A stretch of DNA of 46,703 nt from Escherichia phage 1H12. The stretch's first letter is position 1; each line of letters starts with the position of its first letter. The notes below the pieces were generated by a model. It was given only the letters and a program-made list of their open reading frames with translations. It did not search any database and was not told the origin of the DNA. The stretch lies in the sequence record NC_049947.1; one strand, 5' to 3'. Positions 737-45,950 of the stretch are shown in pieces. Position numbers and translations under genes: made by a program.

Positions 737-4417
<3,681 letters not shown>

Positions 4418-15521: not shown

Positions 15522-18500
15522 ATGGGTAAAGGCAGCAGTAAGGGGCATACCCCGCGCGAAGCGAAGGACAACCTGAAGTCCACGCAGCTGCTGAGTGTGA
15601 TCGATGCCATCAGCGAAGGGCCGGTTGAAGGTCCGGTGGATGGATTAAAAAGCGTGCTGCTGAACAGTACGCCGGTGCTGGACAGTGAGGGGAATACCAA
15701 TATCTTCGGTGTCACGGTGGTGTTCCGGGCAGGTGAGCAGGAGCAGACTCCGCCGGAGGGGTTTGAATCCTCCGGCTCCGAGACGGTGCTGGGTACGGAA
15801 GTGAAATATGACATGCCGATCACCCGCACCATCACGTCGGCAAACATCGACCGTCTGCGCTTTACTTTCGGCGTGCAGGCACTGGTGGAAACTACCTCAA
15901 AGGGGGACAGGAATCCGTCGGAAGTCCGTCTGCTGGTTCAGATACAGCGTAATGGTGGCTGGGTGACGGAAAAAGACATCACCATTAAAGGCAAAACCAC
16001 CTCGCAGTATCTGGCCTCGGTGGTGGTGGATAACCTGCCGCCGCGCCCGTTTAATATCCGGATGCGCAGGATGACGCCGGACAGCACCACAGACCAGCTG
16101 CAGAACAAAACGCTCTGGTCGTCATACACCGAAATCATCGATGTGAAACAGTGCTACCCGAACACGGCACTGGTCGGCGTGCAGGTGGACTCGGAACAGT
16201 TCGGCAGTCAGCAGGTGAGCCGTAATTATCATCTTCGCGGGCGCATTCTGCAGGTGCCGTCGAACTATAACCCGCAGACGCGGCAATACAGCGGTATCTG
16301 GGACGGAACGTTAAAACCGGCATACAGCAACAACATGGCCTGGTGTCTGTGGGATATGCTGACCCATCCGCGCTACGGCATGGGAAAACGTCTTGGTGCG
16401 GCGGATGTGGATAAATGGGCGCTGTATGTCATCGGCCAGTACTGCGACCAGTCGGTGCCGGACGGCTTTGGCGGCACGGAGCCGCGCATTACCTGTAATG
16501 CGTACCTGACCACACAGCGCAAGGCGTGGGATGTGCTCAGTGATTTCTGCTCGGCGATGCGCTGTATGCCGGTATGGAACGGGCAGACGCTGACGTTCGT
16601 GCAGGACCGACCATCAGATAAGGTGTGGACCTATAACCGCAGTAATGTGGTGATGCCGGATGATGGCGCGCCGTTCCGCTACAGCTTCAGCGCCCTGAAG
16701 GACCGCCATAATGCCGTTGAGGTGAACTGGATTGACCCGGATAACGGCTGGGAGACGGCGACAGAGCTCGTGGAGGATACGCAGGCCATTGCCCGTTACG
16801 GTCGTAATGTCACGAAGATGGATGCCTTTGGCTGTACCAGTCGGGGGCAGGCACACCGCGCCGGGCTGTGGCTGATTAAAACGGAACTGCTGGAAACGCA
16901 GACCGTGGATTTCAGCGTCGGCGCAGAAGGGCTTCGCCATGTACCGGGCGATGTTATTGAAATCTGTGATGATGACTATGCCGGTATCAGCACCGGTGGT
17001 CGTGTGCTGGCGGTGAACAGCCAGACCCGGACGCTGACGCTCGACCGTGAAATCACGCTGCCATCCTCCGGTACCACGCTGATAAGCCTGGTTGACGGAA
17101 GTGGCAATCCGGTCAGCGTGGAGGTTCAGTCCGTCACCGACGGCGTGAAGGTAAAAGTGAGCCGTGTTCCTGACGGTGTTGCTGAATACAGCGTATGGGG
17201 GCTGAAGCTGCCGACGCTGCGCCAGCGCCTGTTCCGCTGTGTGAGTATCCGGGAGAACGATGACGGTACGTATGCCATCACCGCCGTGCAGCATGTACCG
17301 GAAAAAGAAGCCATCGTGGATAACGGGGCGCACTTTGACGGCGACCAGAGCGGCACGGTGAATGGTGTCACGCCGCCAGCGGTGCAGCACCTGACCGCCG
17401 AAGTCACCACAGACAGCGGGGAATATCAGGTGCTGGCGCGATGGGACACGCCGAAGGTGGTGAAGGGCGTGAGCTTCCTGCTTCGCCTTACCGTGGCAGC
17501 GGACGACGGCAGTGAGCGGCTGGTCAGCATGGCCCGGACGACGGAAACCACATACCGCTTCAGGCAACTGGCGCTGGGGAACTACAGGCTGACAGTCCGG
17601 GCGGTAAATGCGTGGGGGCAGCAGGGCGATCCGGCATCGGTATCGTTCCGGATTGCCGCACCGGCAGCGCCGTCGCAGATTGAGCTGACACCGGGGTATT
17701 TTCAGATAACCGCCACGCCCCATCTTGCCGTTTATGATCCGACGGTACAGTTTGAGTTCTGGTTCTCGGAAAAGCGGATTGCGGATATCAGGCAGGTTGA
17801 AACCACAGCCCGCTATCTTGGCACGGCGCTGTACTGGATAGCTGCCAGTATCAATATCAAACCGGGCCATGATTATTATTTTTACATCCGCAGTGTGAAC
17901 ACCGTTGGCAAATCGGCATTTGTGGAGGCTGTTGGCCAGCCGAGTGATGATGCATCCGGCTATCTGGATTTTTTCAAAGGCGAGATAGGGAAAAGCCATC
18001 TGGCTCAGGAGCTGTGGACGCAGATTGATAACGGTCAGCTTGCGCCTGACCTGGCTGAAATCAGGACGTCCATTACGGATGTCAGCAATGAAATCACGCA
18101 GACCGTCAATAAGAAACTGGAAGACCAGAGTGCGGCAATTCAGCAGATACAGAAGGTTCAGGTTGATACAAATAATAACCTGAACAGCATGTGGGCTGTG
18201 AAGCTGCAGCAGATGCAGGACGGACGCCTTTATATCGCGGGTATTGGTGCCGGTATTGAGAACACCCCTGACGGCATGCAGAGTCAGGTGCTGCTGGCGG
18301 CGGACAGGATTGCGATGATTAATCCTGCGAATGGCAATACAAAGCCGATGTTTGTTGGGCAGGGCGATCAGATATTCATGAACGAAGTGTTCCTGAAATA
18401 TCTGACGGCTCCCACCATTACCAGCGGTGGCAATCCCCCAACGTTTTCACTGACACCTGATGGTCGACTTTCTGCGAGAAATGCGGATATCAGCGGTAAC

Positions 18501-19004
18501 GTGAATGCGAACTCCGGGACGCTCAATAATGTCACGATTAACCAGAACTGTCGGATTCTGGGAAAACTGTCAGCTAACCAGATTGAAGGTGATATTGTCA
18601 AAACGGTGGGAAAAGCCTTTCCGAGAAATGGCAGTTATGCCAGCGGTACAATAACGGTCACTGTGTACGATGACCAGGCTTTTGACCGTCAGATAGTCGT
18701 CCCCCCCGTTCTGTTTCGCGGTGGTAAGCATGAAAACTTCAACAGCAACAACCAACAGTCATACTGGTATTCAACCTGTAAGCTGCAGGTGCTGAAGAAC
18801 GGACAGGAAATCTTTCAGCAACCCGCGACGGATGTCAGCAGGGTATTTTCATCAGTCATTGATATGCCTGCCGGACACGGCCATGTCACCCTGACTTTCA
18901 ATGTTTCTTCATATGGTGCAAATAACTGGACGCCAACGACCAGTATCAGCGACCTTCTTGTTGTCGTGATGAAGAAATCAACAGCCGGCATCAGTATCAG
19001 TTGA
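15522..19004 (+). CDS. J: tail tip / host specificity protein J (central fiber)
   Basis: 1160-aa ORF; lambda gpJ-like over most of its length but with a divergent last ~150 residues (receptor-binding region). Confidence 0.95.
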
Positions 19005-19023
19005 ATTTTAAAACCCAAATTCG

Positions 19024-19049
19024 GGCACCAGAAATGGTGCCTTTTTTAT
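19024..19049 (+). terminator. putative rho-independent terminator after J
   Basis: Hairpin ggcacc-agaaat-ggtgcc followed by a T-run. Confidence 0.55.
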
Positions 19050-19062
19050 TTGTGGAGTGAAT

Positions 19063-21084
19063 ATGGCAGTACAGATTTCAGGTGTGCTGAAAGACGGTGC
19101 AGGAAAACCGATACAGAACTGCACCATTCAGCTCAAAGCAAAACGTAACAGCACCACAGTTGTGGTGAACACGGTGGCCTCAGAAAATCCGGATGAAGCC
19201 GGACGTTACAGCATGGATGTTGAGTATGGCCAGTACAGCGTCGCCCTGCTGGTTGAAGGTTTTCCGCCTTCACATGCCGGGACCATCACCGTGTATGAGG
19301 ATTCTAAGCCGGGGACATTGAATGATTTTCTGGGCGCTGCAACAGAAGATGATGTTTGTCCGGAGGCACTGTATCGTTTTGAAAAGATGGTGGAAGAGGC
19401 GGCACGCAACGCTGAAGCCGCCTCTCAGAGCGCAGCGGCAGCAAAGAAATCAGAAACAGCAGCGGCATCGTCCAGGAACGCGGCGAAAACATCAGAGACG
19501 AATGCAGGTAACAGCGCGAAAGCGGCAGCTTCTTCAAAAACAGCCGCACAAAACGCAGCAACAGCGGCAGAACGTTCAGAGACAAATGCCCGTGCGTCAG
19601 AAGAAGCCTCCGCAGACAGTGAAGAGGCTTCCCGCCGTAATGCAGAGTCAGCCGCTGAAAATGCCGGAGTCGCCACCACAAAAGCGCGGGAGGCCGCAGC
19701 AGACGCAACAAAGGCCGGGCAGAAAAAGGATGAGGCTCTGTCGGCAGCGACACGAGCTGAAAAGGCGGCAGACCGCGCAGAAGCCGCAGCGGAAGTGACT
19801 GCAGAGCCCTGTGCGAATATAGTGCCGCCGCTGCCTGATGTGTGGATACCGTTTAACGATTCACTGGATATGATTACGGGTTTTTCGCCATCTTATAAAA
19901 AGATAGTTATTGGTGACGATGAAATAACAATGCCAGGCGACAAGATTGTTAAGTTTAAACGTGCTTCAACAGCAACGTATATTAATAAGTCCGGCCAACT
20001 CAAGCTTGCTGAAGTTGACGAACCGCGATTTGAGCGCGATGGCTTATTGATTGAAGGACAGAGGACAAATTATCTGAGGAACTCAAATAAACCAGACTCA
20101 TGGACTGTTCATTCCGCACTGAATAAAACATTTGGCACTGATAAACAGGGGTTCAATTATGCCACGGTGACACCCACGGAAAGTATAGTGGGAACAACAG
20201 GTGGCTATACTGTGCATGGTGTGGTTGCAGCAGACAGATTCCCGCTGGCAAGTGGTGAATGTTTCACTTTTTCGTGCCGGGTTAAAGGCGCTAAAGCACG
20301 ATGCAGGTTAAGAGTTTCAGTTATTATTGGTGGAACAGATACCTTCTCTGCTGACTCTTATCTTGATCTGGATACCCGGATCGCAACAGTAAGCGGTAAT
20401 ACATCCCTTATAACAGCCAAAGCTGAACAACAGGGCGAGTGGACCTACTATGAGGCCACTTATACAGCTAATACGGACATTGATACCGTTAACTGTGCTT
20501 TTTATATGACAAATAAAATAAGTAATGAGCCATTCTATGATGACTCAACATTAACCATGACGACGCCGCAAATTGAACTGGGCAATACGGCATCGTCATT
20601 TATTGTAACTACAATGCCAACAACACGCGCAAGTGATGTAGTTACTATCCCATCGCAGAATAACCTGTCAACACGGCCTTTTACGGTATTGTGCGAAGTA
20701 AGCAGGAACTGGAGTACACCGCCCAATGTTGCGCCAAGGATATTTGATGTTGGAGGGCACAGTATTGATGATAATTATTTATCGCTGGGGTTTGTTGCAA
20801 CAGGAAAGATAAGCGCCAACGTAGGAATGGTTCAGCCACAAATTGCCTCAGATGGAGAAAGGTTCATTGTGGGTGTGAGAGCTAAATCTGATTTATCAGT
20901 AAATGCAATATGCAATGGTAATTATACAACAAACCTTAATGGTAAAATATTTGGAGTTACAGCAACATCGTACCGGTTTGGTGGGCAGACCGCAGCAGGA
21001 ACGCGTCATTTGTTTGGACACATCAGAAATTTCAGAGTCTGGTTTAAAGAATTAAATGACAGGCAAATCAAGGAGGCAGTATGA
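19063..21084 (+). CDS. stf: side tail fiber protein (lambda Stf-like N-terminus, unrelated C-terminal domain)
   Basis: MAVQISGVLKDGAGKPIQNCTIQLKAKRNSTTVVVNTV matches the lambda Stf N-terminus; Ala/Ser-rich low-complexity middle; C-terminal ~430 aa not lambda-like. Confidence 0.85.
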   Translation: MAVQISGVLKDGAGKPIQNCTIQLKAKRNSTTVVVNTVASENPDEAGRYSMDVEYGQYSVALLVEGFPPSHAGTITVYEDSKPGTLNDFLGAATEDDVCPEALYRFEKMVEEAARNAEAASQSAAAAKKSETAAASSRNAAKTSETNAGNSAKAAASSKTAAQNAATAAERSETNARASEEASADSEEASRRNAESAAENAGVATTKAREAAADATKAGQKKDEALSAATRAEKAADRAEAAAEVTAEPCANIVPPLPDVWIPFNDSLDMITGFSPSYKKIVIGDDEITMPGDKIVKFKRASTATYINKSGQLKLAEVDEPRFERDGLLIEGQRTNYLRNSNKPDSWTVHSALNKTFGTDKQGFNYATVTPTESIVGTTGGYTVHGVVAADRFPLASGECFTFSCRVKGAKARCRLRVSVIIGGTDTFSADSYLDLDTRIATVSGNTSLITAKAEQQGEWTYYEATYTANTDIDTVNCAFYMTNKISNEPFYDDSTLTMTTPQIELGNTASSFIVTTMPTTRASDVVTIPSQNNLSTRPFTVLCEVSRNWSTPPNVAPRIFDVGGHSIDDNYLSLGFVATGKISANVGMVQPQIASDGERFIVGVRAKSDLSVNAICNGNYTTNLNGKIFGVTATSYRFGGQTAAGTRHLFGHIRNFRVWFKELNDRQIKEAV

Positions 21085-21359
21085 AAGATTTAACTTTGAA
21101 ATTTCCTGGTAACAGAGAGTTTAAATCCTTCCTGTCATCTCTTGACTGGGAGGAGGATGAAGACCTCCAGAATAAACTGTTAGTCGATGAAATTGGTTTC
21201 ACCTACACAGAAACAGGGGTAACAGAAGAGGGAGAACCTGTCTGTGTCCGGAATGACGGTTATTTTGTCAACATTCGCATTCTTGATGACTTGTTTGATG
21301 TTTCTGTATTCTCTGATTATGTCGTGGAGCTGGAAACACCGCTTCGGGAATGGAGCTGA
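21081..21359 (+). CDS. hypothetical acidic protein, start overlaps stf stop (possible fiber assembly factor)
   Basis: 92-aa ORF whose ATG overlaps the stf TGA (ATGA); no recognisable lambda Tfa sequence. Confidence 0.5.
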   Translation: MKDLTLKFPGNREFKSFLSSLDWEEDEDLQNKLLVDEIGFTYTETGVTEEGEPVCVRNDGYFVNIRILDDLFDVSVFSDYVVELETPLREWS

Positions 21360-21371
21360 AAGGAGGAAATA

Positions 21372-21665
21372 ATGGATATAAGCCCCTTACTTCATGCACT
21401 TTGTGCTGTGGCTGCGCAGATACTGGTTGGTCTTTTTACCGGAAACTGGGCTTACGGAGCGATAGCCGGTTGTACGTTCTTCATTGCGCGTGAACATACC
21501 CAGGCAGAATATCGCTGGATTGAAATGTTCGGGCATGGCAAGCGAATGAATATGCCGTGGTGGGGCGGTTTTGATCCGCGAGCTTGGGATGTGGCAAGCC
21601 TGATGGATTTTGCTGTGCCGGTGGTGGCGTGTCTGCTGGTCTGGCTGTTGGTTAATCGTGGGTGA
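21372..21665 (+). CDS. hypothetical small membrane protein (two predicted hydrophobic helices)
   Basis: 97-aa ORF with RBS ggaggaaat 4 nt upstream; hydrophobic N- and C-terminal segments. Confidence 0.5.
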   Translation: MDISPLLHALCAVAAQILVGLFTGNWAYGAIAGCTFFIAREHTQAEYRWIEMFGHGKRMNMPWWGGFDPRAWDVASLMDFAVPVVACLLVWLLVNRG

Positions 21666-21756: not shown

Positions 21757-22614
21757 CTAATTGGGTGATAACAGATCCTGTGTATGGGAGTTTCCCTTTT
21801 TGCGTGCGTTGATGCTGGTAACGGCAAACGTCATGATGAACAAAACCGCGAATAAGACGACAATCGTCGGAGCTGGTGCGCTGTCGATAAAAAAGGACAA
21901 CCAGACACCAGTCATTGACACTATTACCGATATGCCAGTCGCCAGTAGGAGCGCAATATGAAAGCGTTGTGTCAGGAGTACCGCAATGGCGCCAGGCGCA
22001 ATGAGCAGAGAAATGGAGAGAATGATACCTACCGCTTTCAGCGTCGCCACAATGGTCAGAGAGACCATGCACAGCAGCCCATAATGCAGCCATCTCGTAT
22101 GCAAACCGCTTACCTGCGCCTGTTGATAATCAAAGCTGAACAGCAAAAAATCCCGCCATTTTACGCTAATAACAAGTGTAACCAGCCCGGCAATAATCAT
22201 CGTCTGGATTATATCGCCGATGGTTATCCCGAGCATGTCGCCGAAAAGAATATGGTCAAGATGTACGTCTGGTTTGACTGCAATATACAAGATCAGACCT
22301 GCGGCAAACATGCCAGAAAAAACAATCCCCATCACTGTATCTTGCTTGATTCGGCTGTTGTCTTTCAGGTATCCCGTCGCCACCGCGCAGAATACTCCGG
22401 CGACGAATGCCCCTGTAGCCAAAGGTAACCCCAGAATCCAGGCAAGCACGATGCCAGGAAAAACCGCATGACTCATCGCGTCACCCATCAGTGCCCAACC
22501 TTTCAGGACCAGAAAGACCGACAGCAGCGCACAGGGTATGGAAACTACCAGTGAAATCAGCAGTGCGTGACTCATAAAGGTGAACTGCAGTGGCTCCAGT
22601 AATAATGCCATCAT
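21757..22614 (-). CDS. sitD: manganese/iron ABC transporter permease SitD
   Basis: 285-aa polytopic membrane ORF; ABC-3 metal permease family; fourth gene of a sitABCD-like operon. Confidence 0.85.
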   Translation of the reverse strand: MMALLLEPLQFTFMSHALLISLVVSIPCALLSVFLVLKGWALMGDAMSHAVFPGIVLAWILGLPLATGAFVAGVFCAVATGYLKDNSRIKQDTVMGIVFSGMFAAGLILYIAVKPDVHLDHILFGDMLGITIGDIIQTMIIAGLVTLVISVKWRDFLLFSFDYQQAQVSGLHTRWLHYGLLCMVSLTIVATLKAVGIILSISLLIAPGAIAVLLTQRFHIALLLATGISVIVSMTGVWLSFFIDSAPAPTIVVLFAVLFIMTFAVTSINARKKGNSHTQDLLSPN

Positions 22615-23468
22615 GAGCGATCCTCCAGCGCCTTATGCGCACGCCGACGATTTGCCAAAAGCCCATGGGTGGGCGCAAAGACAAATGCTAAAAGAAACAG
22701 CAGTGTCTGCGCCACCACGATGATTCCACCTGTCGCGCCGTCCAGAAAGTAACTGACCCACGCGCCGAGGAAACTGGTTACACTGCCAATAGTTACAGCA
22801 ATCATGAGCAGGCGGGGAAAACGATCGGTTAACAACCATGCTGTTGCACCGGGAGTCACCACCAGACAGATCACCAGAAAGGCACCAACCGTTTGCAGCG
22901 CCGCAACGGTCGAAACCGACAGCAGGGTGAAGAAGAGGAGTTTTAATCTGCCCGGATGCAATCCAATAGCACGGGCGTGATTCTCGTCGAAAAAGGTCAC
23001 CATAAGATCTTTCCATTTGAAAAAAAGCACGATGATCGAGAGAATGCCAATGATAGTGAGTTGCAGGATATCCGCCGGATCGATTGCCAGAATATTGCCC
23101 AGGACGATGGTCTGAATGTTCACAGATGTCGGGTTCAATGACACCATAAACAGCCCCAGGCCAAAAAAGGACGAGAAGATCAGACCGATGATGGCATCTT
23201 CTTTTAAGCGGGTGCGTTGGTTAAGAAACAGCATGCTGCCCGCAGCCAGTCCGCCGGAAAAGAAGGCTCCCAGAGAAAACGGAAGCCCCAGCATATATGC
23301 CCCCGCAACACCCGGGACAATAGAGTGCGACAACGCATCGCCAATCAGCGACCAGCCTTTTAGCATCAGATAGCATGACAGGAAAGCGCAGAGACCGCCG
23401 ACCATCGCCGAGACCCACATCGCATTGAGCATATATTCATAGCTGAAGGGTTCCAGTAGCACGTTCAT
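22611..23468 (-). CDS. sitC: manganese/iron ABC transporter permease SitC
   Basis: 285-aa polytopic membrane ORF, stop/start overlap with neighbours. Confidence 0.85.
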
Positions 23469-24292
23469 CTTTCTTCCCTCTGCACCGCTGACGGTCGATG
23501 AGCCACAAAAGGGCGTTCATCGTCAGTAATAATGCTTTCTTCCGAGCCGTTAAGTGTGACATGGCGCAGTACGCCGCTAAAAGCCAGCTCTAGGTTCTCG
23601 GCTGTAAAAGTGGTGTCTGTCGGCCCGCTTGCCAGGACGGTGCCTTTGACCATGACCGTATAATCGCAAAATGTCGTGACGGATCCGAGATTGTGTGTTG
23701 AGACAAGCATCGTTTTGCCTTCCGCGCGTAACTCCCTCAACAGGCTGATGATTTTGGCTTCGGTTTTCACATCAACGCCAGTAAAAGGTTCATCCAGCAG
23801 GATCACATCACCCTGCTGTGCAATCGCTCTCGCCAGAAAGACGCGTTTCTTTTGTCCACCGGAAAGCTCGCCGATTTGTCGATGGCGAAAATTCACCATA
23901 TCGACACGTTCCAGCGCATCGGTGACAATTTGACGATCCCTCTTTTTGGCGATACGCAACATACCCATATGCCCATAGCGGCCCATCATCACCACATCTT
24001 CCACCAGTACAGGAAATGACCAGTCAACATCTTCTGACTGAGGGACGTAGGCAACCAGGTTTTTCTGTAACGCCTGTCGCGTGGGAATACCCAGAACAGA
24101 TATCTTTCCGCTGGTCAGACGCACAAATCCCATAATCGCTTTAAACAACGTCGATTTTCCGGAACCGTTTACCCCAACCAGAGCGGCAATAGATCCACTT
24201 GGTACTGTGAAGGATGCATCGCGCAGTGCTGTGTGCCCGTTACGCCAGGTGACAGTAACATCATTAACGACAATGCCTGCAGATTGCATCAT
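23465..24292 (-). CDS. sitB: manganese/iron ABC transporter ATP-binding protein SitB
   Basis: 275-aa ORF with Walker [10 protein letters not shown] and an ABC signature motif. Confidence 0.9.
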
Positions 24293-25206
24293 TATTTCTC
24301 CCTTTTCCCAGCTTTAATTCCCTGTACCAGCGTACTGGTAGTAACCTTAAGAAGGTCGATATACGTCGGTACCGGGCCGTTTTCTGTGCTCAGGGAATCG
24401 ACATAGAGCACACCGCCGTAGTGTGCGCCGGTTTCACGCGCAACCTGACGCGCTGGTTTATCGGAAATCGTACTCTCGCTAAAGACTGCCGGGATATGAT
24501 TTTTCTTAACTATATCAACAACCTTACGTACCTGCTGCGGTGTTCCTTGTTGATCGGCATTAATCGGCCACAGATAAAGCTCTTTTAGCCCCAAATCGCG
24601 TGCGAGATAAGAAAAAGCCCCTTCACTGGTGACCATCCATCGCTGATTCTCAGGGAGTTCCGTAATCTGCTTACGCAGGGGGGCAAGGGTTTGGGTAATC
24701 TTGGCTTTATAAGTATCGGCATTGCGTTGGTAGGTTTGTGCATTTGCCGGATCGTATTTTATCAACGCATCACGAATATTATCGACGTAAATCAGAGCAT
24801 TATCTGGCGACATCCATGCATGGGGGTTAGGTTTGCCCTCATAGGGTCCTTCGGTGATCCCTACAGGCGTCACACCCGAAGAGACAATTACTTCTGGAAC
24901 CCCATTGAGATGCTGGTAAAAGCGTTGGAACCACAATTCCAGATTCATACCATTGGCGAGAATCAGTTGTGCCCCCTGCGCACGTTTAATATCGCCAGGG
25001 GTAGGCTGATACTCATGAATTTCTGCACCAGGCTTGGTTATGGATGAGACTTCTGCAGCATCTCCCGCCACGTTTTTGGCCATATCCGCGATGATGGTAA
25101 ATGTTGTAATGACCTTGAATTTTTCAGTTGCACTTGCCTGAAATGCGATCGAGCAGGTGAGTGCGAGCCCCCCCAAGAGCATGGTTACTTTTTTTATCGA
25201 GTGCAT
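24292..25206 (-). CDS. sitA: manganese/iron ABC transporter periplasmic substrate-binding protein SitA
   Basis: 304-aa ORF with an N-terminal signal peptide; TroA/PsaA-like metal-binding protein. Confidence 0.85.
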
Positions 25207-32131: not shown

Positions 32132-32264
32132 TTTTTGGGACTCCTGGCTGATTAAGTATGTCGATAAGGCGTTTCCATCCGTCACGTAATTTACGGGTGA
32201 TTCGTTCAAGTAAAGATTCGGAAGGGCAGCCAGCAACAGGCCACCCTGCAATGGCATATTGCAT
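32100..32264 (-). CDS. cIII: CIII, FtsH (HflB) protease inhibitor that stabilises CII
   Basis: Reverse-strand translation gives [54 protein letters not shown] (54 aa, below the ORF-track cutoff), matching lambda CIII. Confidence 0.8.
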   Translation of the reverse strand: MQYAIAGWPVAGCPSESLLERITRKLRDGWKRLIDILNQPGVPKNGSNTYGYPD

Positions 32265-32336
32265 GGTGTGCTCCTTATTTATACATAACGAAAAACGCCT
32301 CGAGTGAAGCGTTATTGGTATGCGGTAACGCCGCGC

Positions 32337-32752: not shown

Positions 32753-32965
32753 AAGAAGATTTCCAATAATCAGAACAAGTCGGCTCCTGTTTAGTTACGA
32801 GCGACATTGCTCAGTGTATTCACTCGTTGGAATGAATACACAGTGCAGTGTTTATTAGTATGCCTGTCTTTTAACCACATCAGGCTCGGTGGTTCTCGTG
32901 TACCCCTACAGCGAGAAATCGGATAAACTCTATTCACCCCTACAGAGAGCAAAAGAGAAACGCCG

Positions 32966-33547
32966 ATGAACAACTCATGGTGGCAGGAACTAATGCATTT
33001 TTTCCTGCAAGGAATGACACTTAAACAGTTGATTCATATGCTAATCATCCTGATCATATTGATTATTGTTATGCCTGTAAGCGTAAAAGAATGGATAAAC
33101 CTGCATAATCCAGAAATCCTTCCTCATTACTGGATGTATTACATCCTGTTGTTTTGCGTTAGCTATGTGCTTAACGGCGTTGTTAATTCCGCTTATCACG
33201 CTGTGACTGTAAGAATTGAGATATTCGCTGCTCAGAAGCGCAAATCTAAAGAAGAGAAATACGTGCAAGATTTGTTTGATTCGTTAACTCTTGGAGAAAG
33301 AGCGTATTTGGCATTCGCTGTAGCCGCTAATAACCAGCTAAAGACAGAAAAGGGAAGCCCTGAAGCAATCTCATTGCTCGAAAAAGGGCTTCTTATTCGG
33401 GTACCTTCTGCTACTGGATATCCTGAAATCGACCGTTTTGTTATCCCGGAACGCTATAGAAATGAGTGCTACATTAGGTTTGCTGGGAAGAAAGACAGTC
33501 TTATGGATGAACTTATCGCTCAGGATAAGCATGGCAAAAACAAGTAA
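32966..33547 (+). CDS. sieB: superinfection exclusion protein B
   Basis: 193-aa ORF with an N-terminal membrane segment (MNNSWWQELMHFFLQGMTLKQLIHMLIILIILIIV), matching lambda/Rac SieB; transcribed opposite to the early-left operon. Confidence 0.85.
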   Translation: MNNSWWQELMHFFLQGMTLKQLIHMLIILIILIIVMPVSVKEWINLHNPEILPHYWMYYILLFCVSYVLNGVVNSAYHAVTVRIEIFAAQKRKSKEEKYVQDLFDSLTLGERAYLAFAVAANNQLKTEKGSPEAISLLEKGLLIRVPSATGYPEIDRFVIPERYRNECYIRFAGKKDSLMDELIAQDKHGKNK

Positions 33548-41526: not shown

Positions 41527-41560
41527 TTTTTTCTAATAAGTATCAATCCGGTTAGGTATT

Positions 41561-42085
41561 TTATTGTTTGACCCATAATAGTTCATTGACATTGAATCCC
41601 AATTTTTGAGCAGTACGCACATAGTCTGCTTTTACATTATCTGGAATAGTTGGAGTCCGTGCCAGAATCCATAGGTATTCTCTGTTCGGACCACTGACAA
41701 GAGCATATTTATACTCATCATCCAGTTTGATTACATTATAGCCACCATAGAAGGGGCCAAAAAACGAAACCTTCAACGCTGCAGTTGTATTATCTCCTGT
41801 AAAGTATGCTTTACCTTCGCTCTCGCTCCATTTGTTTTTCGTTGGGTCATATCCACGATTAAGTACACTAATCCCTCCGTCGTTCCGTTTCCCATAAGTG
41901 GCGCTGACCTGTTCCAGACCACGTTCAAATCGGTTCTCAAGCCGAGCTATTTCATACCATTTTCCGAGGTAGCGGTTGGTGTCAAAATTTGTAATCGGCT
42001 GCACACCTTTAGGTGGTGTCGGGGCCTTACATGCTATCAGAGTGAAAGAGAGTGCAATGCCAGTCAACACAGGCCATAACTTCAT
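41561..42085 (-). CDS. blc: outer-membrane lipoprotein, bacterial lipocalin Blc family
   Basis: 174-aa ORF with lipoprotein signal and lipobox LIAC; YLGKWYEIARLENRFERG and SFFGPFYGGYNVI match lipocalin motifs. Confidence 0.75.
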   Translation of the reverse strand: MKLWPVLTGIALSFTLIACKAPTPPKGVQPITNFDTNRYLGKWYEIARLENRFERGLEQVSATYGKRNDGGISVLNRGYDPTKNKWSESEGKAYFTGDNTTAALKVSFFGPFYGGYNVIKLDDEYKYALVSGPNREYLWILARTPTIPDNVKADYVRTAQKLGFNVNELLWVKQ

Positions 42086-45625: not shown

Positions 45626-45656
45626 AGCTGCCCATATCGATGGGCAACTCATGCAA

Positions 45657-45950
45657 TTATTGTGAGCAATAGACACGCGCTTCCAGCGGAGTATAAATGC
45701 CTAAAGTAATAAAACCGAGCAATCCATTTACGAATGTTTGCTGGGTTTCTGTTTTAACAACATTTTCTGCGCCGCCACAAATTTTGGCTGCATCAACAGT
45801 TTTCTCCTGTCCAATTCCCGAAACGAAGAAGTGATGGGTGATGGTTTCCTTTGGTGTTACTGCTGTCGGTTTGTTTCCAACAGTAAACGTCTGTTGAGCA
45901 CATCCTGTAATAAGCATTGCCAGAGCGGCAGAAAACAACATTTTTTTCAT
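45657..45950 (-). CDS. bor: Bor lipoprotein (serum-resistance-associated outer-membrane lipoprotein)
   Basis: Internal ATG gives a 97-aa product MKKMLFSAALAMLITGCAQQTFTV matching lambda Bor. Confidence 0.85.
   Translation of the reverse strand: MKKMLFSAALAMLITGCAQQTFTVGNKPTAVTPKETITHHFFVSGIGQEKTVDAAKICGGAENVVKTETQQTFVNGLLGFITLGIYTPLEARVYCSQ

Follow-up and report, generated by a model that had tools for sequence, protein, structure and literature searches.

Gene J of lambdoid phages encodes the central tail fibre, or tip attachment, protein, which carries a receptor-binding domain at its C-terminus. In the 46,703-nt stretch of DNA from Escherichia phage 1H12 that was analyzed here (NC_049947.1, hereafter the window), an earlier note described a J protein that seemed lambda-like over most of its length and divergent at its C-terminal end, and predicted from this a different or altered receptor specificity. 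The locus thus raises the question of what kind of J tip this is, and whether its divergence from lambda indicates a different receptor.

Organization of gene J

The interval 18500-19004, on which the earlier note was focused, forms the 3' end of a single long open reading frame on the plus strand, as seen in the ORF list and its translation (Table 1). According to the annotations of Lambda_ev245, phage 21 and lambda, J is the final gene of the M-L-K-I-J tail-tip cluster. Pfam matches to the protein, all of them above the cut-offs, occur in the order FNIII-A_GpJ, Phage-tail_3, Ig_J, Ig_J_second, Phage_Tail_Tip (residues 872-1000) and finally Ig_GpJ_C (residues 1038-1160), which corresponds to the receptor-binding domain at the C-terminus. 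This is the domain order of the gpJ family, consisting of the hub, two FNIII/Ig domains, the tail-tip fibre and a C-terminal Ig-like receptor-binding domain. The divergent stretch is thus the receptor-binding part of the protein, as had been proposed.

A megablast search of deposited phage genomes showed that gene J has 100% DNA identity to its counterparts in Escherichia phages Lambda_ev245 and Lambda_ev066, where the product is named 'tail fiber protein', and 100.0% identity, as rounded, to those of Lambda_2E9, Lambda_4B5, Lambda_2G7a and Lambda_ev110. Judged by its sequence, the window is a phage 21-like lambdoid phage, in essence the infant-gut isolate Lambda_ev245; the records of Lambda_ev245 and phage 21 are both placed in the genus Jouyvirus. 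At the Rfam gathering threshold, nothing besides the cIII thermoregulator element (Table 1) was detected in the window. A search of the window for tRNA genes found none; two tRNA genes are given for phage 21 in its genome announcement (PMC9119081).

Table 1. Coordinates of gene J, its parts and other features of the window
Feature	Position	Strand	Basis or remark
J (central tail fibre / tip attachment protein)	15522..19004	+	1160 aa + stop; intact ORF
J residues 1-804, hub domains and two FNIII/Ig domains, lambda-like	15522..17933	+	Windowed identity; Pfam matches to residue 818
J residues 805-900, first divergent block, ~lambda alpha-helical shaft and start of straight fibre	17934..18221	+	BLASTP gaps, windowed identity, DNA alignment
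J residues 901-1007, central straight fibre (beta-prism), moderately conserved	18222..18542	+	Alignment; Pfam Phage_Tail_Tip
J residues 1008-1160, Ig-like receptor-binding domain, phage-21 type	18543..19001	+	Alignment, AlphaFold2, Foldseek
Terminator-like hairpin (19023-19042) and T-run	19023..19052	+	Scan; phage 21 has a terminator annotated there
stf, side tail fibre, second host-range determinant	19063..21084	+	BLASTP; Pfam phage_tail_N
First small ORF 3' of stf	21081-21359	+	
Second small ORF 3' of stf	21372-21665	+	
sitDCBA manganese/iron ABC transporter operon, phage cargo beside tail fibre genes	21757-25206	-	
Lambda cIII thermoregulator element (Lambda_thermo)	32219-32277	-	Rfam, 88.5 bits
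Putative superinfection exclusion protein	~32964-33545		Annotation of near-identical Lambda_ev245
blc (lipocalin) moron	~41560-42085	-	Annotation of near-identical Lambda_ev245; coordinates from that record
bor moron	~45655-45950	-	Annotation of near-identical Lambda_ev245; coordinates from that record

Divergence from lambda J

The window J was compared with lambda J (1132 aa, NP_040600) by global alignment and windowed identity. Overall identity was 83%, distributed very unevenly along the protein. Residues 1-804 were 97.5% identical to lambda J, whereas residues 805-900 were only 34% identical and contained 28 extra residues. Identity recovered to 73% over residues 901-1010, and to 88% over residues 961-1000, so that a better-conserved stretch separates two divergent blocks. 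Over residues 994-1160, which correspond to the interval flagged earlier, it was 50%, and over the final 150 residues it was 47%. The difference between the N-terminal and C-terminal parts (784/804 versus 70/150 identical residues; Fisher p = 6e-55) shows that the C-terminal divergence from lambda is far beyond chance, and real. The earlier observation that the last ~150 residues differ substantially from lambda J was therefore borne out by pairwise alignment, and the high identity across the C-terminus that would have spoken against it was absent (47-50%). The accompanying figure of about 1000 lambda-like residues did not hold, since the 97.5% identity ends at residue 804, some 200 residues earlier.

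Similar transitions were observed in the DNA. Identity to lambda dropped from 90-98% to 23-35% at ~nt 17940-18000, rose to 72-88% at 18360-18540 and was 42-72% from there up to the end of the gene. The G+C content changed stepwise from ~0.60 to ~0.50 at ~17750-18000, coinciding with the junction of lambda-type and phage-21-type sequence in J, and was lower still (~0.41) over distal stf. The alignments point to a mosaic junction in J near residue 805 (nt ~17935). In lambda, the second FNIII domain gives way to the alpha-helical shaft (lambda 809-861) around this residue (PMC11101478). The 28 extra residues of the window J, seen as alignment gaps opposite residues 836-856 and 860-866 (~nt 18027-18119), map to where the lambda shaft has its second helix, which unfolds in lambda upon receptor binding (PMC11101478). 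The insertion is also present in phage 21 and in other J variants.

The tip of the window J is not of the lambda type. Over the corresponding part of lambda J (~985-1132), identity was 46-51% and loop lengths were altered by three indels: a 4-residue deletion at lambda 1010-1013 (including S1012), an insertion of 5 residues following lambda ~1052 and, near lambda 1100, a difference of a single residue. Indel hotspots among natural J homologues have been reported at lambda 1012, at 1048-1049 and near 1107 (PMC6646904, Maddamsetti et al. 2018); the first two indels of the window tip coincide with published hotspots, and the third does so approximately (near 1107). The 'specificity region' of J (lambda 960-1132) is known to be hypervariable (PMC6646904), and the divergence of the window tip adds nothing beyond the J diversity described by Maddamsetti et al. 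2018 (PMC6646904) and Mathieu et al. 2020 (PMC6969025).

Identity of the J tip with that of phage 21

As the phage 21 (Phi21) reference we used GenBank OL657228, in which J is CPT_21_21, 'central tail fibre'. This protein has the same length as the window J (1160 aa) and is 98.4% identical to it, with 18 substitutions; the DNA identity was 96.6% over the gene (megablast) and 97.6% over nt 17920-19004. Five of the substitutions lie in residues 805-1160 and none in residues 987-1160. The last 174 residues of the two proteins are therefore 100% identical, with K986R being the nearest substitution. Near-identity extends over the shaft, the fibre and the receptor-binding domain, as expected of a phage-21-type J allele. 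These results show that the divergent J tip is a known, common and experimentally characterized allele and is not new. J is a natural mosaic, with residues 1-804, comprising the hub and FNIII domains, held in common with lambda, and the shaft, straight fibre and receptor-binding domain derived from another, widespread lineage.

The comparison with phage 21 also bears on whether the divergence from lambda has any functional meaning, since it could in principle have arisen by decay within a defective prophage or by faulty sequencing. Codons 1-804 of the two genes differ by 77 synonymous and 13 non-synonymous changes. In codons 987-1160, all 12 differences are synonymous and none is non-synonymous, which shows that the J tip is under purifying selection and is not decaying. 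In addition, the 1160-codon reading frame is intact, the same sequence recurs in no fewer than six phage genomes that were deposited independently, and these phages were isolated as plaque formers (PMC6969025). We found no point in support of decay or artefact, an extremely improbable reading that was rejected on the intact frame and the substitution pattern.

Predicted fold of the tip and its A8 and phi330 relatives

Residues 986-1160 of J were modeled with AlphaFold2, using an input that included 21 natural homologues. The model had a beta-sandwich core and a mean pLDDT of 81.9. In a Foldseek search, the best matches were to A8 gpJ713, in the OmpC-bound (9wcb) and unbound (9wca) states, at 83% identity and E ~1e-21, followed by lambda gpJ, unbound (8xck) and LamB-bound (8xcj), at 51% identity and E ~1e-17. 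The C-terminal domain of the window J is thus predicted to have the gpJ receptor-binding fold, in agreement with its Pfam assignment.

The tip of A8, a natural allele, has been joined to lambda J at residue 964 (PMC11338833). The A8 gpJ chimera (PDB 9wca/9wcb) and phage vB_EcoS_phi330 belong to the same tip lineage as the window J, with 82% identity over residues 986-1160 and 81-82% over residues 1008-1160, and two segments, of 17 and 13 residues, are identical between the window tip and A8/phi330. The near-identity to the A8 domain that would mark an A8/phi330-type tip was not found. The 31 substitutions relative to A8 in these 175 residues are clustered at 1030-1037, 1047-1060, 1087-1107 and 1119-1131, and A8 matches the separate clusters P0032/P0033.

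The probable receptor

Phage 21 uses LamB as its native and sole receptor on E. coli K-12, and its ancestor forms plaques only with LamB; the single change I1025T in its J adds use of OmpC, and further changes add OmpF (PMC11336670; bioRxiv 10.1101/2023.04.13.536812; Meyer laboratory). Because the tip of the window J is identical to that of phage 21 and retains I1025, the earlier prediction of a different receptor is probably wrong. We conclude that the window J represents the phage-21 allele of this lambdoid protein and that it most probably recognizes the porin LamB, as in phage 21. Dependence on LamB would follow for the window phage by analogy, with phage 21 serving as its proxy. Three points define the scope of this analogy. 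The receptor of phage 21 was determined on K-12 porins only. Evidence on this receptor independent of the Meyer laboratory was sought in the literature and not found; the genome announcement (PMC9119081) is silent on receptors, and a paper from 2026 in which Phi21 is listed among LamB phages refers back to the Meyer-laboratory work. Likewise, a literature search for receptor data on Lambda_ev and related phages found none.

The inference of an altered receptor is likewise not supported. Since the loops of the window tip differ from those of lambda in length and sequence at the indel hotspots, its contacts with LamB must differ in detail. Given these loops and the single step by which phage 21 reaches OmpC, plausibly both the manner of LamB contact and the ease with which receptor use evolves are altered. 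The OmpC-binding A8/phi330 type, at 82% identity, indicates that receptor choice in the gpJ family can flip with few changes.

This relationship also leads to the main alternative, in which OmpC is the native receptor of the tip, either by itself or alongside LamB, and the LamB-only behavior of laboratory phage 21 reflects either a mutation of the tested stock or the K-12 variant of OmpC. The A8 chimera delivers DNA through OmpC into lamB-deleted cells (PMC11338833), the structure of the A8 gpJ-OmpC complex has been solved (9wcb), and phi330, with a tip nearly the same as that of A8, fails to lyse an ompC knockout (PMC12502783). These are the domains with which the window tip shares 82% identity and the two identical segments, and phage 21 itself is one change, I1025T, away from OmpC use. 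Furthermore, the phage 21 stock in which receptors were tested carries G18903A relative to the GenBank sequence (bioRxiv 10.1101/2023.04.13.536812). We computed that this mutation produces E1071K in the receptor-binding domain, so that the tested stock differs from the window J, GenBank phage 21 and A8, all of which have E at this position. On the other hand, ancestral phage 21, with 173 of the last 174 residues identical to those of the window J, failed on hosts with OmpC only or OmpF only, and the clustered substitutions separate the window tip from A8. On balance, we regard native binding of OmpC as unlikely.

A related possibility is that the wild-type phage-21-type tip, with the E1071 seen in the window and in about a thousand E. 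coli prophages, lies on the boundary between LamB and OmpC specificity and that, in natural hosts, particular OmpC variants are used beside or instead of LamB. This reading draws on the receptor data having come only from the E1071K stock on K-12 porins, and on the tip being 82% identical to two proven OmpC binders and ~50% identical to the LamB binder of lambda. We consider it quite unlikely.

LamB likewise remains preferred over an unrelated receptor, for example FhuA, OmpF or a sugar. The low identity to the lambda tip (47-51%) and the general diversity of lambdoid J tips would fit such a target. However, the tip is identical to that of a characterized LamB user, its structural neighbors are all porin-binding gpJ domains, and J is followed directly by stf, with the terminator-like hairpin in the 58-nt spacer (19005-19062) and no gene in between. 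A receptor of this kind is very improbable.

Prevalence and modularity of J tips

DNA of the tip (nt 18540-19004) gave a match of some degree in 2473 of the 5426 complete genomes of E. coli, and a match of 95% identity or more in ~1083 of 20,395 complete-genome records of this species. The tip DNA of lambda was found in 98 genomes; the matches listed include K-12 derivatives and BL21(DE3). In E. coli genomes, therefore, the phage-21 type of tip is common and that of lambda itself is rare. A protein search returned graded tip variants from 98% down to ~51% identity.

Several phages matched J at 94-96% DNA identity only as far as nt 3030-3101 of the gene (residues ~1010-1034) and diverged thereafter, and further phages matched it at both ends and not in the middle (megablast). 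Such partial sharing indicates that J behaves as at least three exchangeable modules. The conserved stretch in residues 901-1007 is a natural and engineered swap point for receptor-binding tips. Among the infant-gut lambda-like phages from which the Lambda_ev and Lambda_2E9-type isolates originate, four J clusters were described, and these did not match host range (PMC6969025, Mathieu et al. 2020).

Genes downstream of J

The Stf protein was 63% identical to phage 21 Stf overall. BLASTP showed that the N-terminal ~290 aa are nearly identical, whereas the distal ~380 aa have roughly 40% identity, as estimated by eye; residues 442-483 gave a weak Pfam match to CBM_4_9. With respect to the sequences of the two fibres, a difference in host range from phage 21, if there is any, would more likely reside in Stf than in J.

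Neither of the two small ORFs that follow stf had a Pfam match. Compared with phage 21, 6 of 92 residues are changed in the first, all of them near the N-terminus and adjoining the variable end of Stf. The second matches its phage 21 counterpart at 97/97 residues, and that counterpart carries the annotation of a putative membrane protein. The sitABCD genes found beyond them have been reported in 70% of infant-gut lambda-like phages (PMC6969025).

Proposed mechanism of tail-tip opening

The opening mechanism considered here is taken from the lambda structures (PMC11101478), and we infer the same behavior for the window phage from its homology to the gpJ structures of lambda and A8. The central fibre would be formed by three J chains, whose C-terminal Ig-like domains would enter, by way of four loops, the extracellular mouth of a trimeric porin of the outer membrane. 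On binding, the three tips would splay apart, while new hydrogen bonds would compact and twist the beta-prism. The helical shaft would then unfold and fold back. The FNIII domains would subsequently dissociate, and the tail tip would open for DNA ejection.

Significance and comparison with known systems

The locus itself has little discovery value, since earlier publications cover the allele, the receptor it uses, its evolvability and the hypervariable nature of the region. Its broader lesson is that the receptor can be predicted only poorly, in either direction, from the sequence divergence of a J tip. Tips that are only ~50% identical (lambda and phage-21 types) share LamB, whereas tips that are 82% identical (phage-21 and A8/phi330 types) use different porins. 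This calls for caution in genome-based prediction of host range and in the design of lambda-based delivery particles.

With lambda gpJ (NP_040600; PDB 8xcj/8xck, 8iyk), the window J shares the position of the gene, the domain order and the Ig-like receptor-binding fold. In contrast to the window J, lambda gpJ has a shaft that is 28 residues shorter, and in lambda the lom gene lies between J and stf, whereas the window lacks lom. The records of phage 21 and Lambda_ev245 have the gene order seen in the window, namely M-L-K-I-J followed by stf, two small ORFs and, on the opposite strand, sitDCBA. Like the window, phage 21 carries sitDCBA beside its tail fibre genes; the distal half of its side tail fibre, however, is a different module. 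The A8 and phi330 tips bind OmpC, whereas the phage 21 tip, which is identical to that of the window J, binds LamB.
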